A stretch of 64,000 bases of DNA from Candidatus Woykebacteria bacterium. GTDB lineage: Bacteria > Patescibacteriota > Microgenomatia > Woykebacterales > RBG-16-39-9b. The translations under genes were made by a program, and so were the position numbers. Positions 5,806 through 62,562 of this stretch are shown here, piece by piece. The stretch is from positions 392,547 to 456,546 of the forward strand of contig JBBDPM010000006.1 of the NCBI GenBank assembly GCA_040876345.1, given 5' to 3'. A model generated the notes under the pieces. That model was not told the origin of the DNA. It did no database searches and worked only from the letters and a program-made list of their open reading frames with translations. Every line of letters starts with the position of its first letter. The first letter of the stretch is position 1.

Positions 5806-5808
5806 TAT

Positions 5809-6411: not shown

Positions 6412-6413
6412 AT

Positions 6414-6803
6414 CTACATTGGAATGTCCCTAACCCTAAATTTATGGGAGTCTATAACAACAATTTTCCTAATAAAATCAGAATCTTTGTATTTCTCTAA
6501 AAATTTATCAATTATTTTAAATAAATTTTGGGGAATTTTTCCTTTGTGACGAATAATAATTAAACCGTATTTAGTGGTCCCACTTATGTTCCTTAGCCTA
6601 GTAAACCCAAGATCAAAGGTTAGTATAACTCGTTCAAGTCTATGTGCCTCTTCAGTAATTATGTTATCTGGAGATCTGGATAATCCTAGCTCCTTTACAG
6701 AAACTAAATCTACGTCTTTAGTTCTTAAGTATTCATTAATTAGGTGGGGGACATTTTCATCGGAGATCAGCTTCATGTACCTTCTCTTTATCGATAAACT
6801 CAA
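6414..6803 (-). CDS. DUF5615-like (PIN-like) putative toxin partner of DUF433
   Basis: 129 aa immediately downstream/overlapping DUF433 gene; the usual DUF433-DUF5615 pair arrangement. Confidence 0.5.
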   Translation of the reverse strand: MSLSIKRRYMKLISDENVPHLINEYLRTKDVDLVSVKELGLSRSPDNIITEEAHRLERVILTFDLGFTRLRNISGTTKYGLIIIRHKGKIPQNLFKIIDKFLEKYKDSDFIRKIVVIDSHKFRVRDIPM

Positions 6804-7041
6804 TATACTCGTGCTCTAAAGCTTTTGCGCTGTAGCGAAGGCAAGCATTAATATCCTTTTCTGTCAAATTGGGGTAATAATCTCGAAGGATTTCCTCGGT
6901 AGTAACACCAGTAGCAAGCAGGTCAATAATCATGTAAACAGGTATTCTGGTGCCAGCAATTACCGGTTTACCTACCATTATTTCATGATTAACAATTATT
7001 TTACCAATATCTTTTGGATCACGGTTTTTCATAGCAGCCAA
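6757..7041 (-). CDS. DUF433 domain protein (putative antitoxin-like)
   Basis: MVGKPVIAGTRIPVYMIIDLL core is the DUF433 signature; 94 aa. Confidence 0.7.
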   Translation of the reverse strand: MAAMKNRDPKDIGKIIVNHEIMVGKPVIAGTRIPVYMIIDLLATGVTTEEILRDYYPNLTEKDINACLRYSAKALEHEYIEFIDKEKVHEADLR

Positions 7042-7622
7042 ATTTTAACACAGGCATCTCATCAATTCAATTGGAGTGGGTAAGTCAAAAAAAGAATAGC
7101 GCCGGGGTTGATCTCTGGAAACCCGCGCCCCGAAAGCCGCCACTTGCGACACCGATAGAACGCTAAAGCGTTCTGCAACCACTTTGTGGGCTAAGGACTC
7201 GAACCTACTATTCAGCTCTCCTCTATCTAGCCCAACGGTCCTCTATCTCCAAGTAGTTTTTGGTCTGCTCCTTTCTAGGTGGCCTAAGCTTCGTGTAGGA
7301 AAACCATAGAGAAAAGGTCGGTCCGTGCACCCAGCAGAGGGGCTTGAAAAATGTACCATTTACCAAACCCCTCTTGGCAAGGCGCCCCATACCATTTCCT
7401 TCGACGTAGACGAGCTGATCCTCACGCCACCGAAACTGGCCAAGAAAATTCCTCAAAGCGTCGGGCATGGTAGTTTCCCTCCTTACTTCTACCATCTAAG
7501 GCATCAATACGTTATTGGAACCGAGGTACTAACAGAAAAAACGGGGATAATCAATAGTATAAGTTTATTAACCTACAGAGCCGATCATTTCCAATTGTAT
7601 CAGGCTAGTTCAAGTATAAAAA

Positions 7623-10556: not shown

Positions 10557-11273
10557 TCAGATGATCCCGCGCTGCCACCCCAAAACCGCCGAATGGACTC
10601 GGTTCTTCGCACCTAACTTCCGGTTTATCACCCTAAAGTGTGTTCGAACCGTGTGTTCGGAGATGCATAATGTATCAGCGATCATTCTGTTGGTCTTGCC
10701 TTCTCTCAGTTGTTGAAGTACCTCGATCTCACGAGGCGTCAACTCCTCTTCAACACCGCCGGCGCCGTTGCTGGCAGACTCTAGCGCGAGACGAACGGCA
10801 AGAGGTTTGGACAATACTGTCCTACCTGCCAATGCATCACTGAATGCGGCGATGAAACCCTGAGTATCGAATGACTCATCGATCACTCCAGCAACACCCG
10901 CTTGAAGCGCTTTGCGTGCCATGGAATCTTCCACGGACGTGATCGGGAGGTAGAGTAGTTTCGCCTCAGGATAGAACCCCTGAAGTTCATCGACTCTACC
11001 TTGAACGTCATTCCCCTTAACTGAGAAGAGAACAAGGTCGAACTTATACCTCTTCTCCTTTTCAGGAAGTGATTCCAGGCGCACCTCGATCGATTGCTTC
11101 TGCGATATGATGAGAGCCACGATTGCCTCTTCCAGGAGCTCGCTTCCCAACGATACTAGCATTCGGACTGTCATTCTTCGAACCTCCTTGTTCCTCTGAA
11201 CACTGAATCGGCTTCCGTCGATCTTCCTTGACCTTAAGCTTACAACCAGGCTGGATACTAATATTAAATTCAC
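10557..11273 (-). CDS. LuxR/FixJ-family transcriptional regulator (C-terminal HTH; N-terminal receiver-like domain)
   Basis: LTPREIEVLQQLREGKTNRMIADTLCISEHTVRTHFRVINRKLG = LuxR HTH; GC-rich; real start may be the internal Met near 11174. Confidence 0.7.
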   Translation of the reverse strand: MNLILVSSLVVSLRSRKIDGSRFSVQRNKEVRRMTVRMLVSLGSELLEEAIVALIISQKQSIEVRLESLPEKEKRYKFDLVLFSVKGNDVQGRVDELQGFYPEAKLLYLPITSVEDSMARKALQAGVAGVIDESFDTQGFIAAFSDALAGRTVLSKPLAVRLALESASNGAGGVEEELTPREIEVLQQLREGKTNRMIADTLCISEHTVRTHFRVINRKLGAKNRVHSAVLGWQRGII

Positions 11274-11382
11274 AAATTGTCAACAAAATCTAAGAAAATT
11301 ATGATGGGTAGGAAAATAGTTTAGTGCGGGCGGAGGCTGAATGAGCAAGCTCACTAGCCTCTCCCCCGCACACTGTCGCGCC

Positions 11383-12045
11383 TCAGATGGCAGGCGGTCG
11401 GCAGAGGGGCGGGATCTCGAAGCCCTTATCGATCCGGTCCACGATTGTGTACGTGACCGTGAATTCCGAGAGTTCTCCGTACCCGATCATCCCCACGCCA
11501 TTGAACGTCCCAGCTGCCGATGCGAAAGCAAGGTGCTTACGCATCAAGTTATGGTAGCCGAAGTCGCCGTCTTCGTAGCAGTCCTTCGTGTCGAAAGCGA
11601 CTGGGTTGCCATCGGCCGTTAGCTCGACCCTGAGGTCGTAGCTGAAGTTGCCGACATAGACAGCGTCCTGGCCTCGCGGCAGGTACACCTCGGCTGTCAC
11701 CAACGAGCTGAGGTTGTATGTCGCCAACCCAGCTCCTGCCTTCACGTCCACGAAGGCGTAGCCAGTGGTGTACCAGAAGTCACGGCACCGCCAGAACTTG
11801 CACCGGTACGTCCGGGTTTCCACCTTCACGTTCGGGTAGAACTCGCCGGTGTCCGGGTCTTGGTACGACGGTTCGTAGACGCTCACGTTCACGTCTGTGT
11901 GAAAGTTGCGCCCGTGGTCGATGGTCATAGCCGCAAACACGGAGGACCCTTCGACCGTCTCCTGCGTGACGTTGGCCGACACGAGAGTCGGAACCAGCGC
12001 CAGCAGAGCTACCATGGCGATCACGATTCCTAGTAACCGTTTCAC
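11383..12045 (-). CDS. secreted hypothetical protein (signal peptide)
   Basis: N-terminal MKRLLGIVIAMVALLALVPTLVSA signal; GC-rich (~60%) coding-like composition. Confidence 0.5.
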   Translation of the reverse strand: MKRLLGIVIAMVALLALVPTLVSANVTQETVEGSSVFAAMTIDHGRNFHTDVNVSVYEPSYQDPDTGEFYPNVKVETRTYRCKFWRCRDFWYTTGYAFVDVKAGAGLATYNLSSLVTAEVYLPRGQDAVYVGNFSYDLRVELTADGNPVAFDTKDCYEDGDFGYHNLMRKHLAFASAAGTFNGVGMIGYGELSEFTVTYTIVDRIDKGFEIPPLCRPPAI

Positions 12046-37734: not shown

Positions 37735-37809
37735 TCCCCGGTAGCTCAATGGTAGAGCGCGCGACTGTTAATCGCTAGGTTGTAGGTTCGAGTCCTACCC
37801 GGGGAGCCA
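37735..37809 (+). tRNA. tRNA-Asn (anticodon GTT)
   Basis: 7-bp acceptor TCCCCGG/CCGGGGA, D and T arms (GTAGG-TTCGAGT-CCTAC), anticodon loop cTGTTaa, 3' CCA encoded. Confidence 0.85.
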
Positions 37810-38187
37810 ATTTTGAGTTTTTGCGTGTGAGAGGATTACATCAAAGGGCTTTTGGAGTGTTATATCAAGACTTTTTCCGTTCCAATTAGAGTTCTGAAAT
37901 AGGTATTTTAGCAATTCTCTCTTTTCTTCCAAATCCGCTTTTTCGAATAGCTCGTAAGCTCGACTTGCCAGTTCTAACACTTTTGTAGCTTCAATGTAGT
38001 AGGTCTCGTCAGCCTTGCTGTGTCGTTCGCTTTGAGTAAGTATATCGTTCTGCTTATTCTTGTATTCTTTGAATTTCTTGTCATAGAAATCTTGAGTAAT
38101 CCACCGCACAACGTAGAGGCGGGTTAAATTTTTTCTTGGTTTTGGAATCGAATCCCTGTGAGAGCCCATTAGTCGCAAAGCGATCAT
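37795..38187 (-). CDS. hypothetical protein abutting tRNA-Asn 3' end (possible remnant of integrated element)
   Basis: 130-aa ORF whose last codons are read from the tRNA 3' end; no recognisable motif. Confidence 0.3.
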   Translation of the reverse strand: MIALRLMGSHRDSIPKPRKNLTRLYVVRWITQDFYDKKFKEYKNKQNDILTQSERHSKADETYYIEATKVLELASRAYELFEKADLEEKRELLKYLFQNSNWNGKSLDITLQKPFDVILSHAKTQNWLPG

Positions 38188-38213
38188 TAGAAGCGAAGCG
38201 ACGCGTAAATCTC

Positions 38214-38272
38214 TAGCTTTCTACCGGGAGAGCCAATCATTTTTAGCCTCAATTTCAATGTCAAAAATGCCT
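38214..38272 (+). repeat. cassette-boundary repeat element copy A (tRNA-Asn 3'-end-like CTACCGGGAGAGCCAAT + TTTTAGCCTCA module)
   Basis: 14/17 identity to tRNA-Asn 3' end CTACCCGGGGAGCCAAT; shares TTTTAGCCTCAA with copies B,C. Confidence 0.6.
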
Positions 38273-38304
38273 ACTATTATTTTTGAAGTTTTCCTATAAA
38301 ATCT

Positions 38305-38613
38305 TTGTTAAGTAAAAAATTTGTAGAGGAGGTGATTTTCTTGCCAATAGGCACATTTCTAGATTCTTTTCCAACAATGCTATTTGTCAGTGTTCACATA
38401 GCACTTCTTTTGGTAGGGGTGTGGGCAGTTAAAAAAGCTATGGATATGAAGCTACCGTTTGCTCAAGCTTTCTGGCTGTATCCGTTAGTGCACGTTGGAT
38501 TCCTTTCCTACTTTGGAGGAATTTTCACGTTTAAAATGGCAGTTTTTTTGGAGCAAGTCCTTGTGGTTATTATGGTAGTTTGGATTGTAACAAAAGCTCA
38601 AAAAGCTGGCTAG
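38305..38613 (+). CDS. small membrane protein (3 TM)
   Basis: 102 aa hydrophobic ORF followed by terminator. Confidence 0.45.
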   Translation: MLSKKFVEEVIFLPIGTFLDSFPTMLFVSVHIALLLVGVWAVKKAMDMKLPFAQAFWLYPLVHVGFLSYFGGIFTFKMAVFLEQVLVVIMVVWIVTKAQKAG

Positions 38614-38627
38614 CTTTGGTGGCTAGA

Positions 38628-38659
38628 AAAACGACTCAGAAATGGGTCGTTTTTCTTTG
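38628..38659 (+). terminator. Rho-independent terminator
   Basis: AAAACGAC-loop-GTCGTTTTTCTTTGG; same GGGTCGTTTTTCTTTGG tail as terminator at 49148..49186. Confidence 0.6.
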
Positions 38660-38676
38660 GTCAAAAAACCTTGGTA

Positions 38677-38772
38677 GTAAGTTCCAACATAGTTTACTAG
38701 TCCGAGCCAATAGTACAAACCCCAATAACTAACAATTTACATTGTCATCACAATACTTTTTAAGTTCCAACG
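38677..38772 (+). repeat. degenerate repeat element copy (GAGCCAATAG...CCCCAATAAC core flanked by direct TAAGTTCCAAC repeats)
   Basis: TAAGTTCCAAC at 38677 and 38760 flank GTCCGAGCCAATAGTACAAACCCCAATAACTAACAA. Confidence 0.45.
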
Positions 38773-38811
38773 ATCTTTTTATTACCCACACTTTTTGTTA
38801 GAATAGTTTCT

Positions 38812-39192
38812 ATGTCAGCCTTTGAAGCTTGGGAAGACCCGCAAACAAAAACAAAATTCTATTTCAGTCATTCAGACAAGAATTTTACAACTGGTGTGAT
38901 GGTTCTACCGCCACACTCCGAGTTACCAAAACACAACAGACCTTTAGCCTATGAAAATCTAGTACAAGTTTCTGGAAAATGTGTGATGAAAGTCTTTGAT
39001 AAGAATGGCCAAATGAACGAACACACTCTAGAAGTAAGTAGTTCTTTAAGTATGGATAAAGGTCAATTTCATATCCACGCTAATCCTTTTGAGGAAATTT
39101 CCTACACTCTTTTCAAAGCAGAGGGGGATATCACCTCTATAGTTGAAACAATACGCAATTCCTTTAAGAAGATTGAACTAACTGAAAGCTAA
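38812..39192 (+). CDS. cupin-like hypothetical protein
   Basis: 126 aa; PPHSELPKH...E and GQFHIHANPFEE resemble the two cupin metal motifs. Confidence 0.4.
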   Translation: MSAFEAWEDPQTKTKFYFSHSDKNFTTGVMVLPPHSELPKHNRPLAYENLVQVSGKCVMKVFDKNGQMNEHTLEVSSSLSMDKGQFHIHANPFEEISYTLFKAEGDITSIVETIRNSFKKIELTES

Positions 39193-39259
39193 TATTCTCT
39201 TGGCAAAAAGTTCTAACCGCACCTATAAACTGGTGTCAAATTAGCTAGATGAGAAAAAT

Positions 39260-39523
39260 ATGAAGAAATACACCTTTGAATTTGTCAGTTACTCAAAACC
39301 CAAAAATAATGATAAAGATTTTGATACATACGAAAGTGTTGTAAACTCGGAGTTTAAAAATCTAAATGTCGTAGTATTTCAAGAGAACTATTCTTCTGCT
39401 GAGGATAAAGCAAAAAACCAGGTAGGCGAAGTGATAGACAAAATATACAAGAAGTATAGGGTTCAGGGAGACTATATCCATTTAAAGTTAAAACTAATAG
39501 AAGAGTTACAAAATGATTCTTGA
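39260..39523 (+). CDS. hypothetical small protein
   Basis: 87-aa ORF in cassette-like array, no motif. Confidence 0.35.
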   Translation: MKKYTFEFVSYSKPKNNDKDFDTYESVVNSEFKNLNVVVFQENYSSAEDKAKNQVGEVIDKIYKKYRVQGDYIHLKLKLIEELQNDS

Positions 39524-39566
39524 GCTGCGGTAGTAGTTCCCAACATAATCGACCAGAGCGAGACAC

Positions 39567-39628
39567 GATTTTTAGCCTCAAAATACCCTATCAAAATGCA
39601 TCAGCCCCAACAGGATTCGAACTTCTGA
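39567..39628 (+). repeat. repeat element copy B (module 2: TTTTAGCCTCAAAATACCCTATCAAAATGCATCAGCCCCAACAGGATTCGAACTT)
   Basis: ~80% identity to copy C module 2. Confidence 0.65.
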
Positions 39629-39642
39629 TATAATTAATTTGC

Positions 39643-40137
39643 ATGAAAGTTAAAATATTTGTAACGGGTGGGACATTTGATAAAGAGTACAACGATAAGG
39701 ATGGACAACTCTTCTTTAAATATACCCATCTTCCCGAAATACTTGAGCTGGGACGTTCACGTGTCGTTGTTGATGTAGAAACCTTGATGATGATTGACAG
39801 TCTGGAAATGACAGACGAAGGTAGAGAAAAAATCGCCAAAAATTGCCTTGATATAAATGAAAACAAGATTATCCTTACTCACGGGACTGATACTATGGTA
39901 GAAACTGCCAAAGTGCTTGCTAAAAGAATAAAAAATAAGACTATTGTCCTTACAGGTGCTATGGTTCCTTTTGTATTTAGAAGTTCTGATGGATTATTTA
40001 ATTTAGGAGCAGCCTTGGCTTTTGTCCAAGCTCTTCCTACAGGTGTTTACATTGCTATGAATGGGAGATATTTTAATTGGGACAATGCTAGGAAGAATAA
40101 GGAGACGGGAGAGTTTGAACCAGTACCACAGGACTAG
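39643..40137 (+). CDS. L-asparaginase/glutaminase family protein, short (N-domain only)
   Basis: IFVTGGTFD and ILTHGTDTM asparaginase active-site motifs; 164 aa; 3' end of ORF contains a repeat-module copy (CAGGACTAGAACTCTAGCTTCAA). Confidence 0.65.
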   Translation: MKVKIFVTGGTFDKEYNDKDGQLFFKYTHLPEILELGRSRVVVDVETLMMIDSLEMTDEGREKIAKNCLDINENKIILTHGTDTMVETAKVLAKRIKNKTIVLTGAMVPFVFRSSDGLFNLGAALAFVQALPTGVYIAMNGRYFNWDNARKNKETGEFEPVPQD

Positions 40138-40237
40138 AACTCTAGCTTCAACTTTTTTGCAAGTTAATTTCTCGTACTGTTTTGTTGTAACAACTCAACT
40201 AAATTTAAAGTATTTGTGAATAACGATCCCAATTATA

Positions 40238-40345
40238 AGTTCTAAGTGCGTCGAGTAGCGGGAGCCAGATATTTTAGCCTCAGAGTACTCCTATCAAACT
40301 AGTTCAACCCCAACAGGACTAGAACTTTTAGCTTCAAAGAGCCTT
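40238..40345 (+). repeat. repeat element copy C (most complete: modules 1+2 with 8-nt terminal inverted repeat AAGTTCTA...TAGAACTT)
   Basis: AAGTTCTAAGTGCGTCGAGTAGCGGGAGCCAGATATTTTAGCCTCAGAGTACTCCTATCAAACTAGTTCAACCCCAACAGGACTAGAACTT. Confidence 0.7.
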
Positions 40346-40384
40346 TCTTTATGAGATAATGATTAGCGTGAAGGAATACCAAAG

Positions 40385-41194
40385 ATGGATATTTTTACGG
40401 CTCAGCTTATAACGGCATTTTTAATTGGAGGAGTACTTGTCTCTTCACTTTCACTATTAGCAGAAAAAGCTCCTTCTAAAACTGCAGGGTTAATATTATC
40501 ACTACCATCAACTTCAGTAGTCAGTTTTTTCTTTATAGGATTAGTTACTTCAAAGGGCCAGATTTATGAGGCTGCGTTGGGGGCATTTCCAGCATTGGGA
40601 GCGTCTCTAATTTTTGCAGTTGTGTACATTTATGTTGCAAATTTATTCAAACAGAAAAACCTGAGTCTTACTGTAAGCCTTATTGGCGGTTTTGTAGTTT
40701 GGTTTTTTCTAGCAATTCTGATTGTTTCATTTGAACCTTTAAATTTACCTTATTCTTTAGGAATATATACCTTCCTTGCCGTAGTTTCCCACTATTTCTT
40801 ATTTATCAGAACTAAGGATAAAACAGACGGATTAGTTGCCAATGTACCACTTGACGCTAATTCACTCATCGTTCGTTCGGCCTTTGCAGGAGCAGTTGTA
40901 GCTACAGTGGTCCTGATGTCAAAGGTAGCTGGCCCTTTTTGGGGTGGTGTTTTTAGTGTTTTCCCTGCGGCTTATGCTTCTAACCTGATCGCCTTTCATA
41001 ACAAGCTTGGTGCGGATTCGCTGTTCCGCTTTTCAAAAGTACTTCCGATAGGTTCGCCCTCCTTTGTTTTGTATGCTTCTGCAGCCGCTTTTACCTTCCC
41101 GTTAATTGGGCTCATTTGGGGGACAATTGTTTCTTATATTGTGTCCGCTATGTTCGTTTATATAGTTTGGAAAATAAGTTTTCAAAATCGCTAG
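40385..41194 (+). CDS. polytopic membrane protein (~8 TM)
   Basis: 269-aa hydrophobic ORF. Confidence 0.5.
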   Translation: MDIFTAQLITAFLIGGVLVSSLSLLAEKAPSKTAGLILSLPSTSVVSFFFIGLVTSKGQIYEAALGAFPALGASLIFAVVYIYVANLFKQKNLSLTVSLIGGFVVWFFLAILIVSFEPLNLPYSLGIYTFLAVVSHYFLFIRTKDKTDGLVANVPLDANSLIVRSAFAGAVVATVVLMSKVAGPFWGGVFSVFPAAYASNLIAFHNKLGADSLFRFSKVLPIGSPSFVLYASAAAFTFPLIGLIWGTIVSYIVSAMFVYIVWKISFQNR

Positions 41195-41246
41195 GCAGTA
41201 TTGTTAGTGGTGAACACAGATGAGAGTTGATAATTACTCCAATCAA

Positions 41247-41310
41247 AAATTCTAAGTACGTGGCGTAGTGGGAGCCAATATTCAAAGATAAAACCCCTAC
41301 TTCAGTTTTT
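41247..41310 (+). repeat. repeat element copy D (module 1: TTCTAAGTACGTGGCGTAGTGGGAGCCAATATT)
   Basis: close match to module 1 of copy C. Confidence 0.6.
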
Positions 41311-41316
41311 AGTTTA

Positions 41317-41640
41317 TTGGAGATACAATTATCTTGTATGGCTGGAAATAACAATTACTGGGCTTACTGGGATTTTGCATTTCCTATTAGATTAGGAAAT
41401 AAAAATATGTTGTCTAAAAGAATCGTAGTATTTTTGCTTTTACAGTACTCAACTGTTTTTTTATACTTGATAATACTTTTTAGTTTTTTTGAGAGTAATA
41501 TTAATACCACAGGTGGTCGTGGATTATTTGCTCCAGGAAAAGCTCCGGCTACTACAGGTGATTTTCTAGCTTTTGCTGGTTATTTAACTATAGCCTGGGT
41601 TTTTTGGTATATTTACGACAAAAAATATCAGCGTCAATAA
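41317..41640 (+). CDS. small membrane protein
   Basis: 107 aa, two hydrophobic helices. Confidence 0.35.
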   Translation: MEIQLSCMAGNNNYWAYWDFAFPIRLGNKNMLSKRIVVFLLLQYSTVFLYLIILFSFFESNINTTGGRGLFAPGKAPATTGDFLAFAGYLTIAWVFWYIYDKKYQRQ

Positions 41641-41647
41641 CAAGTCT

Positions 41648-41726
41648 AAAAAGTTCCCACATACTACACCAAAGCGGGCCAGCTACTACTTAATGCAAAT
41701 TTTCCCCAACCTGCACCGAATCTTCC
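41648..41726 (+). repeat. repeat element copy E (AAGTTCCCACATACTACACCAAAGCGGGCCAGC ... CCCCAACCTGCACCGAATCTTCC)
   Basis: degenerate modules 1 and 2 upstream of brnT. Confidence 0.5.
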
Positions 41727-41766
41727 ATTGACAATACCAACTTAATTGTATATTATTGTCATATAC

Positions 41767-42075
41767 ATGGGGCTTGACGATATAGGTGGTTTTGATTGGG
41801 ATGAGGGAAACATTTTAAAGAACTGGGAGAAACACAAGGTAAAGCATACAGAAGCGGAAGAAGTTTTTGAAAACAAACCAAGGTTTGTTTTTCCAGACAC
41901 TCAACATTCTAAGGTAGAGTTAAGATACGGTATATTAGGAGTAACCAACGAGAAAAGATTACTTTCAGTTACCTTTATGTTGAGAAGCAATCGGACAAGA
42001 GTGGTAAGTGCTCGGGATATGAGCAAAAGAGAAAGGAAATTTTATGAAAAAATTAAAGCAGCTACCAAAATTTAA
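41767..42075 (+). CDS. brnT: BrnT-family ribonuclease toxin (DUF497)
   Basis: FDWDEGNILKNWEKHKVKHTEAEEVF matches BrnT signature; start taken at MGLDD. Confidence 0.75.
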   Translation: MGLDDIGGFDWDEGNILKNWEKHKVKHTEAEEVFENKPRFVFPDTQHSKVELRYGILGVTNEKRLLSVTFMLRSNRTRVVSARDMSKRERKFYEKIKAATKI

Positions 42076-42325
42076 AAACGAAGATGGGGAGCGTGATTTT
42101 TGGGCAAAGCACGATTTTATTGATTACTTCGATGTCGACAAGGTGATCGTTAATCCTTCCTTCCCAAATTTAAAGCCTTCAACTCAAACCATCTCAATCC
42201 GTCTAACTCAGTCGTTACTAAATGCCCTTAAAGAGCTCGCAAACAAAAAAGATGTTCCCTATCAATCCCTAATGAAGATGTATTTGTCGGAAAAGGTTGA
42301 GGAGGAGTTGCAATCTGTAAAGTAA
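42044..42325 (+). CDS. brnA: BrnA-type antitoxin
   Basis: overlaps brnT 3' end; ISIRLTQSLLNALKELANKKDVPYQSLMKMYL resembles BrnA/DUF4415 C-domain. Confidence 0.65.
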   Translation: MKKLKQLPKFKNEDGERDFWAKHDFIDYFDVDKVIVNPSFPNLKPSTQTISIRLTQSLLNALKELANKKDVPYQSLMKMYLSEKVEEELQSVK

Positions 42326-42383
42326 GTTTCAACTCTTGAAGCTACCCGAAAAGCTAGTTTTTTGTTTTGCTATAATCAATGGC

Positions 42384-43115
42384 ATGAAAGTGGCCATAAT
42401 AACTGGTGCTAGTAGTGGCATCGGCAAGGTAGCTGCAGAGCGGCTCTTGAAAAATGGCTGGAGAATATACGGCTTATCACGCACTGAACCGAACATTAAA
42501 AATGGTAACTTTGTGTGGCTCGCCTGTGACCTAGCAAAGCCTGATACCATCGCAAAAACATTAGAGAAGATCGCTGAGCCCAGAGTCGACTTACTCGTCA
42601 GTAATGCTGGCGTAGCCTTTGAACAGCCACCGACGGGAGCCACACAAGAATCCTATGAAAAGATGTTTTCTGTTAATGTTTTAGCCCCGATGCTGCTAAC
42701 TGCTATGTTGAAAGATAAGATCGCCCACTCTACTATCATTAGTATTTCATCAGTTTCCGACCGTCTTATTGAGAAAGATTACGCACTTTATTGTAGTTCC
42801 AAGGCCGCGAATACTCGTTTTTTTGAAGCTCTAGCAGATAATTTAGTGGGCGCTAAAGTCTACACTTTGCTACCTGATTACGTTGATACCCCAATGTTAA
42901 GAGAACTTGAGGAAGGCCGTAACTTCAATTGGTCGCAAGCATTGAGTGTAGAAGATCTTGTAAAGTTAGTGGTTGATCTCGCATTAGGGAAATTTGATTT
43001 GGCGTCAGGTTCAAATATAATTGTCGTGAATAACGCACTCAAAGAGGATCTTGCAAGTCGAGAAAAACTCTATGGTTTTAATACTGATACAGGCGAATTA
43101 GTTAAGTTGCAATGA
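42384..43115 (+). CDS. short-chain dehydrogenase/reductase (SDR)
   Basis: TGASSGIG cofactor motif, YCSSKAA (YxxxK) catalytic motif. Confidence 0.8.
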   Translation: MKVAIITGASSGIGKVAAERLLKNGWRIYGLSRTEPNIKNGNFVWLACDLAKPDTIAKTLEKIAEPRVDLLVSNAGVAFEQPPTGATQESYEKMFSVNVLAPMLLTAMLKDKIAHSTIISISSVSDRLIEKDYALYCSSKAANTRFFEALADNLVGAKVYTLLPDYVDTPMLRELEEGRNFNWSQALSVEDLVKLVVDLALGKFDLASGSNIIVVNNALKEDLASREKLYGFNTDTGELVKLQ

Positions 43116-43166
43116 AGTTCTAATTTCAGTCACTAGTAGGATCCATTGAATTTAGCCTCGTTTTTT
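43114..43166 (+). repeat. repeat element copy F (GAAGTTCTAATTTCAG ... TTTAGCCTCG)
   Basis: shares AAGTTCTAA start and TTTAGCCTC module. Confidence 0.45.
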
Positions 43167-43376
43167 CATATCCCCAGGTAGGACGTTCGAGACTTTATTT
43201 GCATTCAATTTGGCCACGAGTTCTTCTACAATCTTTGCAGAAATAATGTTTTCATTCTTTTCAAAATCCAAGGTTTGTTTTGAGTAGCGACTTTCCGCTC
43301 TTGGTGTTAAATTAACTGCTGTCTCAGAGGTAAATACGTACGGGTAGGCGCTTTTATTGCCACTGCTCCAGAGCAT
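43152..43376 (-). pseudogene. DinJ/RelB-like antitoxin fragment (C-terminal half only)
   Basis: RYSKQTLDFEKNENIISAKIVEELVAKLNANK aligns with C-terminus of intact DinJ-like gene at 49436..49726; N-terminal RHH part missing, no toxin partner. Confidence 0.5.
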
Positions 43377-43418
43377 GTGGAGCGGGTGTTAGAAGGGCTT
43401 TGATTGAATACACAAGTG

Positions 43419-43830
43419 ATAATATAAGTTATTTTATCGATAAAATCTCCCTATTTCACCTTGTTTTTGAAACCATTCATCCGTTCAATGATGGGAACGG
43501 TAGAATCGGCCGAATATTAATTATCAATTATACAAATTAGGATTTCCGGGAATAATTATTCGTGATAAAGAGAAGCAAGTCTACTAACGTTCTTTCAAAG
43601 AATATCGTGATGATAGAAACACTAAAACAATTGAAAGAATAATATTGCTGGCAATAATGGAAAGCTTGCATAAAAGGACCGCGTATCTTAAAGGAATAAA
43701 AATTATTAGGGCTTCTGAGTTTGCAATACAGAAAAACAAGCCCCTTCCGGTAATTCTTAATGCAGCAAGGCGCCAAACAATCCCCGCTTTCAGAGAAAAA
43801 GGTGTGTGGAAAATTGGAATAGATGCGTAA
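43419..43830 (+). pseudogene. Fic/Doc-family protein pseudogene (N-truncated, frameshifted)
   Basis: [23 protein letters not shown] (Fic motif HPFxDGNGR) then stop; downstream [16 protein letters not shown] continues in another frame. Confidence 0.6.
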
Positions 43831-43924: not shown

Positions 43925-44806
43925 TTAACTTTTCAATTCACGAAGATTGATTGGTGTCCAAATCTCACCAAATATCCCACTGGCTAGCAGCTGATCAAGA
44001 GTTGTAAGAGCAAAAGTAAAATGAGTCTTAAAAAAAGTCTTTTCTAGAGCCTTTTTAATAAACTTTGTTAGGAAGAGCCGAGTTTGATCATTGGCGCAGA
44101 TAAATAGCGCCACCGGATTAGTTCCCGGTTGCTGGTCTGTATCTGAGTCTGAGTACTTAAGGTACTGTCGGACTCTATAGCGAAGATAGTACCTGGGGAC
44201 TCCTTGCTCCATTAGTTCAAGGAAGTAGCGCCGCTCTTTCCTAGATTTGAAACGGCTTCTTTGCCCTTCCTCAAAAGTCTCTCCAAGGCTCTCTTGCGTC
44301 TTTTCTTTTTTGATTATCTCTGAAGGCGCTCGGTTGAGAGAAAAGAGAGCATCGGGATAGGGTTCAATCATGTCCTCAACCTCAGAGAGGTCTACCTTGG
44401 TGTGGAAATAGTTAAGGGCATTTAGGTCCTTTGTCCTTTGCAAAAGCTCAATGTATAGATTAGCAAGAGATAAACAATGATTTCTAAATTTATCTGATCG
44501 ATACTTTTCTCGGTACAGTTTGTGGACGATATCAGAATTCCCTTTTCTTTTTAAGAGCCGGACTCCAGTGGGGGCAGCAAAATAGACTGCCGGTTGAATG
44601 TTTAAAGGTATCTTCCTCTCGTAAATCCTCACCAGATAACCCTTACTAACCAAGTCTCTTAACCAAGCATTGATTCTTTTGTAATCTTTGTGCTCCAGGA
44701 GTGTTTGAACCTGAATTCTATCTAGAAATCTAAACTTATAAATAAACATCATGACTTCTTGTTGTTTGCTAGTTATGTAGGGAAGATCCGCAGACCAGTT
44801 TTTCAT
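43925..44806 (-). CDS. replication-relaxation family protein (plasmid/ICE-type wHTH)
   Basis: ITSKQQEVMMFIYKFRFLDRIQVQTLL...INAWLRDLVSKGYLVRI matches Replic_Relax N-terminal wHTH pattern. Confidence 0.55.
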   Translation of the reverse strand: MKNWSADLPYITSKQQEVMMFIYKFRFLDRIQVQTLLEHKDYKRINAWLRDLVSKGYLVRIYERKIPLNIQPAVYFAAPTGVRLLKRKGNSDIVHKLYREKYRSDKFRNHCLSLANLYIELLQRTKDLNALNYFHTKVDLSEVEDMIEPYPDALFSLNRAPSEIIKKEKTQESLGETFEEGQRSRFKSRKERRYFLELMEQGVPRYYLRYRVRQYLKYSDSDTDQQPGTNPVALFICANDQTRLFLTKFIKKALEKTFFKTHFTFALTTLDQLLASGIFGEIWTPINLRELKS

Positions 44807-59462: not shown

Positions 59463-59552
59463 TGGCGGAGGGGGTGGGATTCGAACCCACGGTACCCTCG
59501 CGGGCACGCACGCTTTCCAAGCGTGTGCACTAGGCCACTATGCGACCCCTCC
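59463..59552 (-). tRNA. tRNA-Ser (anticodon GGA), long variable arm
   Basis: acceptor GGAGGGG/CCCCTCC, anticodon loop ttGGAaa, long variable arm, GTGGG-TTCGAAT-CCCAC T-arm, CCA encoded. Confidence 0.8.
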
Positions 59553-60318
59553 ACAAAGCGCGTCATATTATACCAGAAAGCGGAATAACTTGACTAAGCA
59601 AGCTAGCGGTGGTATAAGAATCCATGGGAGAAGGATGATCGACCGGACCGGAAGTTCCACTAGGAGGTTTACCATGACCCAGTATGACCAGCGCGGCAGC
59701 CCTGTCGGCCACCACGCTGCGGCGCAGACGGCGACAACGGCCCCCACAGCGGGCACAACGACGCCGACTATGCCGAAGACCACCCGTCGCCCCGGCCGGA
59801 GGTAGCTCGCAGTCCCGCCCGCGCGAAGGTAGAAGACACCAGCACTTCGAACTGCGTGACCATACCGTCACCAGCAGGTGAGGTCGGATACGCACCGTAC
59901 TGGCCTTAGGCACTAGAACGTGCGCTTCTTGCCTGCGTTTTACGAGCCCGTGGCCTAAGTCGACGAACCTATCACCTAGAACCAGGCCCGCCCGACGCAC
60001 AACTGTGCTGACGGCCCATATCCCCACACAAGGAAACTGCCGCACAAAGGCAAGGACCACGTGGGATCGTATGGTTAGCAAGTACTCAAGGATGGGCATA
60101 CGAATCCGGTCGACACTGACTCCCAAGGACCCACCAGGTGTACCTATCACAGGAGCACTCGGTGGGTCCTCTCTCATTTATTTGAACTTCACAAGACAAA
60201 AACCAATTAAAACTTTCTCAAAACCTCTCTTAGCAAGTAGCTTTTCTAATGGTAAGATAATTTTGATGGCGGAGTGAAACCATAACGTTAAGGAAGAGAT
60301 CAACGGAGGGAAGGATCC

Positions 60319-61020
60319 ATGAACCGTTACATCATAATGGTCGCCTTGTCCATTGCATTTTTCTTGGCGGTTACGAGGCCGAACAGTGGAGTTCCGCCGG
60401 CAATTCAGCCAACCACCCAGACGGTGCCTATCACACCAAATTCCGTGGTAATCACCAAATACATCGAGGTACCAGCTCCAACCCAGGCTCAGCCAAGTCC
60501 GACAGCGAGAGCGGAGCAATCAACGGCAACTTCAGTGCAAACCGTACCTAGGGCGGAGGCCGCGATTAGCCGAATCCGTATACCGGAGTACGAGGTGGAC
60601 GCACCGGTAATAACCATGGGGATAGACGATAACGGCGTGATGGAGGCTCCCGAGAAACCAACAGATGTGGCGTGGTACGATTTCACCAACAATCCAAGCT
60701 CTGGAAGGCAGTGCTGCAACGCTGTTTTCGCGGGACACGTGGACAGCAGCTACTCAGGGGATCCTGGACCAGCGGTCTTCTGGCCTCTGAAATACCTCGT
60801 TCGCGGCGATGTGGTTGAGGTGGAGATGGAAGACGGAACAGTTTACCACTACCAAGTGGTATCAAACGAGCTGGTGGATGCAGCCACTGCCGATGTCGGC
60901 GAGATCATCGGTCCAACCCAAAAAGAGACTGTCACCCTCATAACTTGTGGCGGACACTTTAACCAAGTGACTCACCACCACGAAGGGCGGGTGATCGTGA
61001 AAGCAGAAAAGGTTCCCTGA
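60319..61020 (+). CDS. sortase (transpeptidase), membrane-anchored
   Basis: N-terminal TM; catalytic TLITC Cys motif and upstream FAGHVD His; GC-rich. Confidence 0.75.
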   Translation: MNRYIIMVALSIAFFLAVTRPNSGVPPAIQPTTQTVPITPNSVVITKYIEVPAPTQAQPSPTARAEQSTATSVQTVPRAEAAISRIRIPEYEVDAPVITMGIDDNGVMEAPEKPTDVAWYDFTNNPSSGRQCCNAVFAGHVDSSYSGDPGPAVFWPLKYLVRGDVVEVEMEDGTVYHYQVVSNELVDAATADVGEIIGPTQKETVTLITCGGHFNQVTHHHEGRVIVKAEKVP

Positions 61021-61133
61021 GGTTGCACCAACCAAGCGACTCATGATATCTTCTCCTTGGATAATGGCCACTAAAGCCAGTTTGGCAAGGAAGGGAGGGA
61101 CAAACACACGGCCATTCCAATTCATCGGTAAGT

Positions 61134-61676
61134 TTGGAGACTGAGAGGTGCGAGATGCCTAAAAGGCACAAGCTCCTGGGGTTGGCTCTCTCCTATGCGT
61201 TCCCGCAGAGAGCTAGCTGGCCTCGGCATCTAACAGTCGTTGCAACGCTTGGGGTGGGGGCTTTTCTGTTCATCAGCCTCGGAATACCCCCAGCGACTGG
61301 GCCCCCGGCCCACGCAGCGACAACCAACAGTCTGGCTAGCCATGAGACGCCAGACCACGCCATAAGTAGCGCTGTCGGCAGGGAAGACAGGGTAGACCTA
61401 ACGGTCACCACCGCTCCAATAGTGCAGGGGGGTTGGGACGCCGCACCAGTAGAGTCCCTACCAGAAGCTACACACGAGGCTTCCGGGACCGGAACGCTGG
61501 TGATCATTAGCGCAGTTGCAGCCACCTTCGGCACCATTTTCGTCACTAGCTGCGTAGTCAGAGCAGTTCGAAACCGGGAGAGGCTTACTCCCTCCATGCT
61601 CCGCGCAGAACTAAGTCAACTGGTGGCGAAGCTGCGACAAGCGCTGGGAACAGGAAGAGTGACCCAAGACCGCTAG
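61134..61676 (+). CDS. putative sortase substrate surface protein (LPEAT sorting-signal-like C-terminus)
   Basis: signal-peptide-like N-terminus; C-terminal LPEAT + hydrophobic segment GTLVIISAVAATFGTIFV + basic tail RAVRNRER. Confidence 0.5.
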   Translation: METERCEMPKRHKLLGLALSYAFPQRASWPRHLTVVATLGVGAFLFISLGIPPATGPPAHAATTNSLASHETPDHAISSAVGREDRVDLTVTTAPIVQGGWDAAPVESLPEATHEASGTGTLVIISAVAATFGTIFVTSCVVRAVRNRERLTPSMLRAELSQLVAKLRQALGTGRVTQDR

Positions 61677-61789
61677 TAACCTTGGGCGGCTACAAACAGG
61701 CTTTATAAAAAGCCTGGTTCTTCGGAACAATATCGTTGGAGTCAAACTCCTGCTGGGGGTTGTACGCTTGCGTATTGCCCCCAGCGAAC

Positions 61790-62203
61790 TCACAACAAGT
61801 TTTTTGCTTCCTGGAAAACTTTTTTATCCGTTTTGAACGATAGTCTCTCTTCAACCTTACCAACTGGTAACCACTCTGCATTTTCCATTTCCCAATCGTG
61901 ATATTCAATATTTCCCGACACGTATGCCATTAAAAAATAAGTTACTTTCTTTTTAATTTTGTCTCCCTTGAGTTGATAAAAATATTCTGTGGGTGAGAGT
62001 TCTTTAATTATTTTGGCTTCCACCCCGCCTTCTTCTTTTACTTCGCGAAGGGCGGTAGCTTCTTTTGTCTCACCCGGGTCAATCAATCCTTTGGGGAAAA
62101 CCCAACCGTGATGTTGGGAATGTTGAACAACCAAAATATAAATTTGATCGTTTTCTCGTCTAACTACGATGCCGCCAGCAGATTCTTCAAATTTAAATGT
62201 CAT
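61790..62203 (-). CDS. NUDIX hydrolase
   Basis: Nudix box GETKEATALREVKEEGGVEA (Gx5Ex7REUxEExGU). Confidence 0.8.
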   Translation of the reverse strand: MTFKFEESAGGIVVRRENDQIYILVVQHSQHHGWVFPKGLIDPGETKEATALREVKEEGGVEAKIIKELSPTEYFYQLKGDKIKKKVTYFLMAYVSGNIEYHDWEMENAEWLPVGKVEERLSFKTDKKVFQEAKNLL

Positions 62204-62289
62204 AGTTTTGAATTTGAGCTCAAACTCTGTTAAAATATTTAATCACTTAGATGCAAGACAGTTATAACTGAATTATATCATTCCAACTT

Positions 62290-62365
62290 GCCCCCGTAGC
62301 TCAGTGGATAGAGCGCAACGTTGCGGACGTTGAGGTCGGAGGTTCGAATCCTCTCGGGGGCGCCA
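62290..62365 (+). tRNA. tRNA-Arg (anticodon GCG as read; unusual, verify)
   Basis: acceptor GCCCCCG/CGGGGGC, anticodon stem CAACG/CGTTG, loop ttGCGga, T54-T55-C56, CCA encoded. Confidence 0.7.
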
Positions 62366-62366
62366 C

Positions 62367-62458
62367 GGAGGGATGGCAGAGCCCGGTTTAATGCGCCGCT
62401 CTCGAAAAGCGGTTGGGTCGCAAGATCCTCGGAGGTTCGAATCCTCCTCCCTCCGCCA
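62367..62458 (+). tRNA. tRNA-Ser (anticodon CGA), long variable arm
   Basis: acceptor GGAGGGA/TCCCTCC, anticodon loop ctCGAaa, long variable arm, CCA encoded. Confidence 0.8.
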
Positions 62459-62486
62459 TGGTTCGACTACGCTCGCTATTCAAACT

Positions 62487-62562
62487 GCGCCTGTAGCTCA
62501 GTGGATAGAGCACAAGCCTCCGGAGCTTGAGGTCGAGAGTTCGAATCTCTCTAGGCGCGCCA
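62487..62562 (+). tRNA. tRNA-Arg (anticodon CCG)
   Basis: acceptor GCGCCTG/TAGGCGC (one G-U), anticodon loop ctCCGga, CCA encoded. Confidence 0.8.

Follow-up and report, generated by a model that had tools for sequence, protein, structure and literature searches.

Organisation of the locus

The locus lies in a 64-kb window (the whole stretch of DNA that was analysed) and starts with a tRNA-Asn(GTT) gene on the plus strand (37735–37809), called by both ARAGORN and Rfam. Directly 3' of this gene, between 38.2 and 43.2 kb, nine co-oriented genes are separated by eight same-strand copies of a degenerate element. The preliminary description of this DNA had reported such a repeat between ten small plus-strand ORFs from 38305 to 43115, anchored at tRNA-Asn: the repeat family is real, the anchor was confirmed and every credible gene of the interval lies on the plus strand in both the ORF list and the gene calls of the source contig, while the number of called genes is nine (102, 126, 87, 164, 269, 100, 102, 93 and 243 aa). 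The contig of a sister MAG, otherwise identical, stops 3 nt past the CCA of the tRNA.

The genes fall into short units, all on the plus strand. Unit 1 (38305–38613) encodes a small membrane protein with no Pfam match, homologues of which form the first gene after tRNA-Asn in another locus (L007), where they are present twice; unit 2 (38812–39192) encodes a cupin-like protein with a weak Pfam match and unit 3 (39260–39523) an 87-aa protein of unknown function. Unit 4 (39643–40137) is a truncated asparaginase comprising the N-terminal domain only (Pfam match to positions 1–162 of 193), whose stop codon falls within a solo copy of the right end of the element (40112–40145). Unit 5 (40385–41194) encodes a DUF3147 membrane protein identified by Pfam, with closest homologues that are at most 40% identical and in some cases found in archaeal contexts, and unit 6 (41338–41640) a 100-aa membrane protein present in the ORF list and the source gene calls. 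Unit 7 (41767–43115) combines a BrnT toxin, a CopG/BrnA antitoxin and an SDR, all with Pfam support, without an internal junction; a terminator-like motif lies in a gap of this unit (42326–42383). A Fic fragment and an antitoxin remnant are also present in the window.

Junction elements between the units

The left module of the element (31 nt, AAGTTCYAA..N..GGGAGCCA) starts at 38679, 39208, 39534, 40237, 41247, 41651 and 43115, and a displaced tRNA 3' end is found at 38205–38235; the earlier list of module copies had identified the family and lacked three members. TTTAGCCTCA occurs exactly at 38242, 39571 and 40273 and as a variant at 43151; allowing up to one mismatch, it has 17 matches in the window against 6.7 expected. 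CCCCAACAGGAYTMGAACTT is present at 39605 and 40308, its sole other match in the window (3 mismatches) being the reverse complement of the 3' end of a real tRNA-Arg. The 8-nt inverted repeat said to bound the best copy was found at 40237/40320; the partial copy in the asparaginase 3' end lies at 40128–40141, with direct repeats ACAGGACTAGAACT at 40128 and 40313. A profile built from the window copies revealed no extra copy in the remaining 58 kb of the window, so that within it the element is confined to this locus; the same profile does match other genomes, and the family is therefore not a chance pattern.

Nearest to the tRNA, an attR-like stretch at 38205–38255 (plus strand, as are all junctions) combines a left module that has been shortened, CTACCGGGAGAGCCA as the displaced 3' end of the tRNA, and ATCATTTTTAGCCTCA as the flank: it resembles left modules that adjoin recombinase genes in loci L146 and L145, and the same flank directly follows the intact tRNA-Asn in L007, with the same first gene next. 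Junction 1 (38679–38709) is a left module of subfamily c (..GTTCCAACATA..CCGAGCCA), and junction 2 (39208–39238) a decayed left module with core GTGTCA and no recognisable right arm. Junction 3 (39534–39624) is a full element, in which a left module c with core GAGACA is followed by TTTAGCCTCA at 39571–39580, an inverted T-arm-like end CCCCAACAGGATTCGAACTT and then TGATATAAT. Best preserved among the full elements is junction 4 (40237–40327), where a left module b (..GTTCTAAGTGCGTCGAGTAGCGGGAGCCA) leads into TTTAGCCTCA and then the right end. Left modules of subfamily b are likewise present in L007, L093, L113, L140 and L141, and one forms junction 5 (41247–41277). Junction 6 (41651–41681) has a left module c with core GGGCCA, behind which come a 'CTACTACTTAAT'-type right arm and, at 41728–41756, a promoter-like site; right arms of this type are also seen behind the true tRNA-Asn in L004 and behind left modules in L120 and L140. 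In the last recognisable element, junction 7 (43115–43198), the left module has the core GATCCA and is followed by TTTAGCCTCG and, as right end, by CCCCAGGTAGGACGTTCGAGAC.

Folding of the element did not reveal an attC-like hairpin: 14/14 single-stranded folds from the window (z from -0.45 to +2.0) were no better than shuffles, and of four further full elements one, in both its strands, beat them. The element cores are not RYYYAAC/GTTRRRY, in agreement with the initial remark that the repeats do not fit canonical attC R''/R' boxes.

A serine recombinase remnant at the tRNA and its relatives

A minus-strand ORF at 37795–38187 overlaps the 3' end of the tRNA gene with its stop and final WLPG codons: TGG CTC CCC GGG TAG is the reverse complement of the tRNA end CTACCCGGGGAGCCA. 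This ORF shows a weak match to the phrog_95 integrase, a large serine recombinase (LSR) profile matches 37798–38220 with E=3.5e-38, and the ORF aligns to the C-terminus of proteins of ~500 aa with Resolvase, Recombinase and Zn_ribbon_recom domains; its homologues end in WLPG adjoining tRNA-Asn or tRNA-Gln. Judged by these matches, the ORF is the last 130 codons of an LSR gene, and the statement that no integrase is present has to be corrected. Recombinase remnant and tRNA together form an attL-like junction.

Intact members of this LSR family adjoin the 3' end of tRNA-Asn in loci L018, L088/L089 and L132, and 5'-truncated remnants are common. In L132, a 7.9-kb element with an intact LSR is bounded by tRNA-Asn and by a left module c plus TTGATTTTAGCCTCA, and left modules directly adjoin LSR 3' ends in L116 (E=2.8e-6), L145, L146 and L084. 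No intact LSR was found within the 64-kb window, and for most arrays in other loci none was found on the same contig. A tyrosine recombinase was detected in none of 20 window ORFs and none recurred among 144 array ORFs; IntI was not found.

Recurrence in other genomes

With the profile from the window copies alone, same-strand series of copies were detected in L005 and L007 and a single copy in L058. A metagenome scan with GGAGCCANNNTTTTTAGCCTCA yielded 55 loci, many with arrays (L141, for example, has 7 copies); this bait contained the core and the TTTAGCCTCA flank and hence biases right-arm statistics. All copies lie on one strand in 17/17 loci with at least two copies, the median spacing between copies is 910 nt, and in loci with tRNA-Asn the copies are 3' of the tRNA and on its strand. 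Many further CPR genomes and metagenome contigs have such arrays, which are headed by tRNA-Asn in L007, L093, L110, L127 and others. The arrays contain conserved terminator motifs and diverse accessory genes (HAD, NUDIX, GNAT, EamA, toxin-antitoxin), few of which are common to more than one locus: gene content is highly variable and turns over between genomes.

Exchange point and half-site spacing

Left and right parts of the junctions swap exactly at the core GGAGCCA. One right part, 100% identical over 50 nt, follows the true tRNA-Asn in L128 and, in L092, L101/L109 and L104, three unrelated left arms, and many left modules at least 85% identical to each other precede unrelated right parts. 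A unit common to L099 and L121 is 95.8% identical over 683 nt, with homology beginning exactly at GAGCCA; the right boundary of this unit is not at a GGAGCCA core. In 47/49 array copies, 29 nt separate the start of the motif [G/A/T]TTCnnA from the CCA end, compared to 24 nt in tRNA-Asn genes. In LSR sites, the motif of the zinc-ribbon domain occupies positions 16–24 in attP and 11–19 in attB, a 5-bp shift (PMC3783163); when we set the crossover at the GA of GGAGCCA and counted along our sequences, the tRNA motif fell at 11–19 and the cassette motif at 16–24. By this count, the spacing of the left arm matches the published rule for attP versus attB half-sites of LSRs. The right half-site is poorly defined, because right arms are heterogeneous, sorting into no fewer than four families (those with TTTAGCCTCA, with CTACTACTTAATATAAC or with a promoter-like ATAGTATTGACTT, besides the 3' end of the LSR), and TAG stands at the expected offset in only 19/32 non-bait copies; for a P'-versus-B' shift on this side, motif similarity is weak. 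The units bear their own promoter-like sequences.

Interpretation and alternative explanations

We consider it rather probable that an LSR built this locus at the tRNA-Asn 3' end, as a tandem array of very small integrative units that has since decayed. In this genome the array has probably lost its activity, given a recombinase cut to 130 codons, mutations in several cores and the truncation of several genes. Each junction consists of a left module of ~31–48 nt resembling the 3' part of tRNA-Asn, the core GGAGCCA, which corresponds to the acceptor end plus CCA and is the place of strand exchange, and the start of the next unit. The left modules would act as P-type half-sites, their T-loop-like GTTCnAAC being separated from the core by 5 bp more than the T-loop of the tRNA itself, and the 3' half of the tRNA as the B-type half-site, the fixed left partner of the recombination site. 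The tRNA would be attB-like with the TTTAGCCTC flank and attL with the recombinase 3' end; a left module would be attR-like with the TTTAGCCTC flank, the form of every inter-unit junction with that flank, and attP-like with the recombinase 3' end. The stretch at 38205–38255 is probably the right end of a deleted recombinase element. The sequences themselves show how the junctions are built, where their parts are joined, the spacing rule, the recurrence across genomes and the physical link to LSR genes; we infer that the LSR is the acting enzyme and that units are shuttled by it: an LSR-bearing element would integrate at the tRNA (attP x attB), excision may pair attL with any downstream attR, recombinase-less neighbours could thereby be carried off or left in a new host, and attB would be restored with one unit added beside the tRNA (accretion and cis-mobilisation). 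Several points count against this reading: canonical LSRs recombine attP with attB only, or attL with attR when a directionality factor is present (PMC3783163), and a factor of this kind was not identified here; the model assigns no function to the inverted T-arm-like right end seen in full elements; an intact LSR is lacking from the window and from most array contigs; and the poorly defined right half-site, the weak motif similarity behind a P'-versus-B' shift, the right boundary of the L099/L121 unit away from a GGAGCCA core and the bias of the bait weigh against it as well.

As an alternative, full-size LSR elements could have integrated serially at tRNA-Asn and each decayed to one or two genes, the small units never having been mobile. 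The LSR remnant, truncated asparaginase, antitoxin remnant and Fic fragment of the window, the mutated cores and the frequency of 5'-truncated LSR remnants would all suit such a history. However, after integration the element's own arm would sit at the tRNA, and random deletions would neither restore a TTTAGCCTC-type flank beside it nor give such junctions their uniform form of left module plus flank; left-module subfamilies are kept across genomes with a fixed 29-nt spacing, and small units that are identical or 96% identical stand in differing surroundings, their similarity breaking off sharply at the core. We thus regard this explanation as unlikely, albeit deserving some weight. The 3' ends of tRNA genes are well-known targets of tyrosine integrases, and a further, yet unseen recombinase of this kind or of Xer type could have built the array with LSR elements merely sharing the hot spot, in keeping with most arrays having no LSR on the contig and with unit right arms unlike LSR 3' ends. 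This appears distinctly improbable given that no tyrosine recombinase was found in the ORFs surveyed, that in L132 the LSR-bounded element and the small units share the same terminal left module, that left modules adjoin LSR genes at the same core and that the +5-bp offset agrees with the LSR site rule.

Promoter-like motifs in right arms and conserved terminator motifs in the arrays might instead point to an intergenic repeat of regulatory or REP-like nature that duplication and homologous recombination have spread, site-specific recombination playing no part: we judge this very improbable, with copies limited to one locus of the window and one strand, tied to tRNA-Asn and sharing a sharp core break point with LSR elements. 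Least credible, and already largely refuted, is the integron/CALIN reading raised in the preliminary description, which would require unusual attC sites recombined as folded single strands by an IntI-type tyrosine recombinase: it would account for a co-oriented array of short units with variable accessory content and for imperfect terminal inverted repeats in some copies, but there is no conserved hairpin and no R''/R' box, IntI was not found, the universal part is a non-palindromic left module, units carry promoter-like sequences and the anchor is a tRNA gene. The serial tRNA-targeted integration scar offered beside it came closer, the candidate enzyme being an LSR with its remnant beside the tRNA. 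Also supported are a cassette-like array anchored at tRNA-Asn and the view that its repeats form a recombination-site family of their own, with kinship to the 3' end of the tRNA.

Comparison with known systems

Integrons and CALINs share with the tRNA-Asn array a single anchored site, one orientation, diverse accessory genes in short units and junction sites that consist largely of the upstream unit's 3' end; in contrast, the tRNA-Asn array has no IntI, folded attC or R''/R' boxes, promoter-like sequences accompany its units and its candidate enzyme belongs to the serine, not the tyrosine, recombinases. As in the att model of the A118/LI integrase (PMC3783163), the outer motif of the left arm is 5 bp nearer the crossover in the host site, although phage-type LSR systems have one attP and one attB whereas the array has many tandem attR-like junctions with heterogeneous right arms.

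In staphylococcal SCC/SCCmec, Ccr large serine recombinases act on tandem cassettes split by att sites at the 3' end of rlmH, and recombinase-less ACME, COMER and defence cassettes are moved by a neighbour's recombinase, singly or jointly (PMC11470126). An LSR and tandem att-separated cassettes at the 3' end of a conserved gene are thus common to both, while SCC units are tens of kb long, their target is protein-coding and their mobility is experimentally demonstrated, that of the tRNA-Asn array being inferred. The Dehalococcoides ssrA islands are likewise tandem islands downstream of a tRNA-like gene (tmRNA), bounded by direct repeats of its 3' end. They have a CcrB-like serine recombinase gene on the reverse strand beside attL, as here, and a conserved motif upstream of each repeat that cannot be aligned with the gene itself; 15 islands without an integration module were proposed to be cis-mobilizable by accretion (McMurdie et al. 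2011, PMC3146451). Such a motif and recombinase-less units are both features of the tRNA-Asn array, which differs in its target, in exchange apparently at the acceptor/CCA end rather than the T-loop, in units of 0.3–1.7 kb with 1–3 genes instead of multi-kb islands, in a site that itself encodes the last codons of the recombinase, and in its CPR hosts. The array is best read as LSR-built tandem recombinase-less mini-cassettes, akin to SCC and the Dehalococcoides ssrA islands, and in this genome it is probably a fossil.

Genes and repeat copies of the array

The window, whose sequence is identical to part of contig JBBEDR010000006.1 from a Candidatus Woykebacteria MAG, carries tRNA-Asn(GTT) at 37735-37809 (+), with a Ni-superoxide dismutase gene upstream of it on the opposite strand. 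All credible genes between 38305 and 43115 lie on the + strand, as the preliminary description had it; they number nine rather than ten, and encode two small membrane proteins, a protein that weakly matches cupins, an uncharacterised 87-aa protein, an asparaginase with the N-terminal domain only, a DUF3147 protein, BrnT, BrnA and an SDR. The repeat that separates them has a 31-nt left module, AAGTTCYAA-N-GGGAGCCA, with copies starting at 38679, 39208, 39534, 40237, 41247, 41651 and 43115 (junctions 1-7), whilst a displaced copy of the tRNA 3' end (CTACCGGGAGAGCCA) is found at 38205-38235. After the left module several copies run on into TTTAGCCTCA and then, ~25 nt later, into CCCCAACAGGAYTMGAACTT, which elsewhere in the window is approximated only by a real tRNA-Arg 3' end in reverse complement. 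Since a profile built from the window copies found no further copy in the window outside 38.2-43.2 kb, the observation of a same-strand, repeat-separated array holds, with more copies than had been listed at first. Rfam models matched the real tRNA only, even in permissive mode, so that the copies do not qualify as pseudo-tRNAs by these models. Further along the window (59463-62562) a cluster of tRNA-Ser, tRNA-Arg, tRNA-Ser and tRNA-Arg genes lies within a stretch of raised G+C content (~0.50-0.52 vs ~0.41 elsewhere). Comparison locus L004 has this cluster too, close to tRNA-Asn and to the gene for superoxide dismutase and with another relative orientation.

A large serine recombinase remnant beside tRNA-Asn

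The ORF at 37795-38187 (-) has the C-terminus ...HAKTQNWLPG*, and its last codons (TGG CTC CCC GGG TAG) match the tRNA end CTACCCGGGGAGCCA in reverse complement. The homologues of this ORF are likewise short, have the same ending and adjoin tRNA-Asn or tRNA-Gln; in L085 the homologous reading frame is longer on its upstream side, where it takes in a zinc-ribbon motif. Among 1.8 billion representatives a profile search returned 4503 relatives; in those of ~500 aa the matching stretch lies at the C-terminus, and the domains present are Resolvase, Recombinase and Zn_ribbon_recom. Intact genes of the family end on the tRNA-Asn 3' end in L088/L089, L018 and L132, with that of L018 located beside the same superoxide dismutase gene as in the window. 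These ~500-aa relatives with the domains of a large serine recombinase (LSR), together with the intact genes at tRNA-Asn, identify the window ORF by sequence as the last 130 codons of an LSR gene, flanked by the tRNA as putative attL and by the tRNA end at 38205-38235 as putative attR; the initial statement that no integrase is present had overlooked this remnant. An LSR gene thus lies at the attL end, as in known LSR islands, both in the window (as a remnant) and in L018, L088 and L132 (intact). In the window (37795-37809) as in L018, L088 and L132, it is the tRNA acceptor end with its CCA, read in antisense, that encodes the conserved C-terminal residues WLPG, so that part of the enzyme gene is its own attachment site and is constrained by the tRNA.

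The idea that module 2 (TTTAGCCTCA...) represents decayed last codons of the recombinase was abandoned: tblastn matches were at noise level only, and the intact tRNA-Asn of L007 and of others has TTTAGCCTCA without a recombinase. A weak positional similarity between module 2 and the recombinase 3' end remains. In L088 (2462-2680) a complete tRNA-Asn stands beside the intact recombinase and is followed ~70 nt on by another tRNA-Asn copy, which breaks off in the T-loop. A tRNA-Asn of its own and a crossover within the T-loop are possible for this element, which would make it a different variant.

Arrays in other genomes

The window-copy profile revealed same-strand series of copies in L005 and L007 and one copy in L058, a Woykebacteria genome. 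Together with L018, these loci had been fetched as superoxide dismutase neighbourhoods and not for arrays; as a guide to orthologous loci the Ni-superoxide dismutase failed, because its gene is scattered over bacteria and archaea and few of the loci are orthologous, and it was by luck that L005, L007, L018 and L058 had arrays or LSRs. In L007, tRNA-Asn is followed directly by AACTTTTTAGCCTCA, then by a homologue of the first gene of the window array and then by further junctions and different genes. Metagenomes were scanned with GGAGCCANNNTTTTTAGCCTCA as bait, which prescribes the core together with a single type of right arm and so biases right-arm statistics; of the 55 loci obtained, many contain arrays by profile (including L093, L102, L110, L121, L127 and L141, the last with seven copies). 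Every copy lies on one strand in all 17 loci with at least two copies, the median copy spacing in multi-copy loci is 910 nt, and the ORFs inside arrays are mostly co-oriented (35 vs 13). On contigs with tRNA-Asn the copies are found 3' of it and on its strand. As in LSR islands, units of one orientation stand in tandem between repeats of the target gene's 3' end. The gene content is diverse and rarely common to loci (HAD, NUDIX, GNAT, EamA, peptidase S51, toxin-antitoxin and others). Viral contigs gave no match to the junction pattern.

For the DUF3147 unit there is no evidence of turnover, because its homologues are at most 40% identical and the only context with DNA available is archaeal and without an array: in L147 and L148, DUF3147 homologues (32% identity) adjoin the archaeal ribosomal protein genes L24e and S28e. 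This hints at cross-domain sharing of the DUF3147 accessory gene. Within the L110 array, three gene families (177 aa, encoded on the opposite strand, then 91 aa and 84 aa) form a block that is present in two copies, at 5029-7273 and 10803-12014, with one copy directly after tRNA-Asn and the other deeper, behind a left module.

Several loci link these small units to LSR elements. In L132, tRNA-Asn bounds one side of an intact 7.9-kb LSR element, and a left module followed by TTGATTTTAGCCTCA bounds the other; this module belongs to subfamily c, as do those of window junctions 1, 3 and 6. In L116, inside an array, a left module (E=2.8e-6) gives way at the core to the C-terminal remnant of an LSR, and in L145 and L146 differing upstream genes precede a left module and then an LSR 3' end; the L146 module is similar to the shortened left arm found at 38205 in the window. 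Recombinase-less units therefore share their att sites with recombinase-bearing ones (L132, L116, L145, L146), again as in LSR islands. L084 (540-660) contains a 105-nt gene-less insert between tRNA-Asn and an LSR remnant, which ends in its own left module and core and may be the smallest possible 'unit'.

Junction anatomy and probable exchange at the core

Common to all copies is a left module that ends in the core GGAGCCA, whilst the right parts fall into families: CGATTTTTAGCCTCAAATTT..., often closing with an inverted T-arm-like GTTCGAACC plus a TGnTATAAT motif; ..CCYATAGTATTGACTT-N17-TATAAT, with the layout of a sigma-70 promoter; ..CTACTACTTAATATAAC; and the antisense 3' end of the LSR gene. 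One right part is 100% identical over 50 nt behind a true tRNA-Asn (L128) and behind three unrelated left arms (L092, L101/L109 and L104), with the contexts in L092, L101 and L128 coming from one metagenome. Conversely, many left modules that are at least 85% identical stand before unrelated right parts. L099 and L121 have a 683-nt unit in common (95.8% identity), in which homology starts exactly at GAGCCA and ends after a degenerate module and terminator, not at a core. Left and right parts thus assort independently, and this is the mark of a site-specific exchange at the core that was followed by decay. In the window, the gap between the BrnA and SDR genes (42326-42383) holds a terminator-like GCTA..N..AGCTAGTTTTTTGTT that also follows units of L099 and L121 in near-verbatim form; units seem to take conserved terminator modules along with them. 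The L003 contig from the sister MAG GCA_040903525.1 (positions 1-20) is 100% identical to the window and ends 3 nt past the tRNA-Asn CCA, exactly at the inferred exchange point; this fits with junction heterogeneity and proves nothing.

Half-site geometry

The left-module subfamilies are conserved across genomes, and the sequence between their motifs differs by subfamily at constant length. The last 17 nt of left modules are colinear with the tRNA, and in 47 of the 49 array copies a [G/A/T]TTCnnA motif begins 29 nt ahead of the CCA end, compared to 24 nt for the T-loop of tRNA-Asn genes. For LSRs, Rutherford et al. placed the motif of the zinc-ribbon domain at positions 16-24 in attP and 11-19 in attB half-sites, a 5-bp shift (PMC3783163). 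With the crossover set at the GA of GGAGCCA and positions counted by us on the copy and tRNA sequences, the tRNA ATTCGAACC falls at 11-19 and the GTTCGAACC of the units at 16-24. On the other side of the crossover the TTTAGCCTC of the common right arm lies at 11-19; promoter-type right arms have TAG at the same offset, present in 19 of the 32 non-bait copies, and a T-run/GC motif in LSR 3' ends lies ~5 nt further out than TTTAGCCTC, with weak similarity. The left arms, as candidate half-sites, conform to the 5-bp attP/attB rule, and the heterogeneous right arms are suggestive of it. By this geometry, tRNA with a TTTAGCCTC flank would be attB-like, tRNA with the LSR would be attL, a junction with a TTTAGCCTC-type right arm would be attR-like and a left module with the LSR would be attP-like.

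Integron-like and dispersed-repeat alternatives

In the preliminary description the locus had been likened to an integron cassette array or CALIN, and it does share with these short cassettes of the same orientation and variable content. The defining features are absent, and we reject this reading. Folding of the copies for an attC-like bulged hairpin gave no conserved structure: 14 window folds (7 copies, both strands, as single-stranded DNA) had z scores of -0.45 to +2.03 vs shuffles, and of four further full elements from other loci only one, which carries a perfect 14-nt terminal inverted repeat, beat its shuffles (both strands, z about -4). A stem between left GTTCGAAC and right GTTCGAAC was discarded as a requirement, given that in copies such as those of L134, L096 and L116 the right end persists and has no left counterpart. 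The R''/R' boxes RYYYAAC / GTTRRRY are absent, the ends being GTTCYAA (5' side) and TMGAAC (3' side), and the part conserved in every copy is the left module ending in GGAGCCA. As for a tyrosine recombinase, there was no Phage_integrase match in the locus ORFs or in 20 window ORFs (213-595 aa) and no recurrent one in 144 array ORFs (among the 25 most frequent of 117 families), IntI itself not being required for the CALIN class. A dispersed repeat of MITE or REP type, raised earlier as a genome-wide motif, was rejected because the window copies are confined to one locus (no copy in the window outside 38.2-43.2 kb) and copies keep to one strand in 17/17 multi-copy loci.

State of the window array

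The window array looks old, and its sequence suggests a fossil in this genome: cores are mutated (GAGACA, GGGCCA, GATCCA, GTGTCA), junction 2 has no right arm and just a stump remains of the LSR. A direct repeat of 24 nt, ACAGGACTAGAACT(C/T)T(T)AGCTTCAA, is present within 40112-40145 and 40309-40338 (repeats at 40128 and 40313); the stop codon of the asparaginase, which retains its N-terminal domain only, lies inside the first repeat copy, a solo right-end copy, and a recombination or insertion event at the right end of the element seems to have truncated the gene. Remains of other mobile DNA follow beyond the last junction (43152-43540, 43925-44806), namely an antitoxin remnant, a Fic-domain fragment and a Replic_Relax gene. 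The ORF at 43152-43376 (-) had been considered as a second recombinase remnant; the LSR profile gave no match to it, and its homologue in L140 is antitoxin-like and sits in an antisense toxin-antitoxin pair inside an array. As a fossil, the window array therefore has its direct value as a marker of the system.

Proposed mechanism and significance

The best explanation for these findings is a tandem array of mini-cassettes that was built by an LSR, is anchored at tRNA-Asn and is widespread in genomes of the Candidate Phyla Radiation (CPR). In such a shuttle, an LSR element would integrate at attB; excision pairing attL with a more distal attR would then generate a circle carrying the intervening units; and in a new genome, excision via the proximal attR would leave these units behind, beside a regenerated attB. 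These three steps would need canonical reactions only, and they would explain the attR-like form of TTTAGCCTC-type junctions, the tRNA again being followed by a B'-type flank and the units needing no recombinase. Accretion and cis-mobilisation, as proposed for the ssrA islands of Dehalococcoides (PMC3146451), is the idea applied here, and the Ccr-driven mobilisation of tandem recombinase-less SCC-like cassettes (PMC11470126) parallels the proposed shuttle. Excision and circularisation of units by the recombinase are hinted at only indirectly, by identical units in differing contexts and by the L003 contig break at the core. No directionality factor was identified for the LSR model, and the inverted T-arm-like end of full elements is not accounted for by it.

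A bolder version, which taken as a whole we hold to be possible and rather unlikely, is an integron-like gene-capture platform of CPR bacteria that would use a serine and not a tyrosine recombinase, with the tRNA-Asn 3' end as fixed acceptor site. Each unit of this platform would consist of a single gene with its own promoter and a site that combines a P-type left arm with a B-type right arm, and would insert, excise and reshuffle individually via attR-like x attB-like exchange. Every such exchange would regenerate the same two site types and hence have no built-in direction, and the recombinase would come in trans from a transient element, whose own C-terminal codons would be one component of the site.

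The ways in which small CPR genomes acquire and exchange accessory genes are poorly understood, and in the open-access literature we found no description of integron-like platforms, tRNA-targeted serine-recombinase elements or such arrays in CPR bacteria. If our reading is true, the arrays would represent a natural set of dozens of related half-sites that obey the 5-bp attP/attB rule, which could aid att-site prediction and the design of serine integrases for genome engineering. CPR bacteria would then keep a compact, recurrent hot spot in which a serine recombinase stacks and exchanges one-gene units. This would be a counterpart in miniature to SCC and to the ssrA islands of Dehalococcoides, and its outcome would be integron-like.
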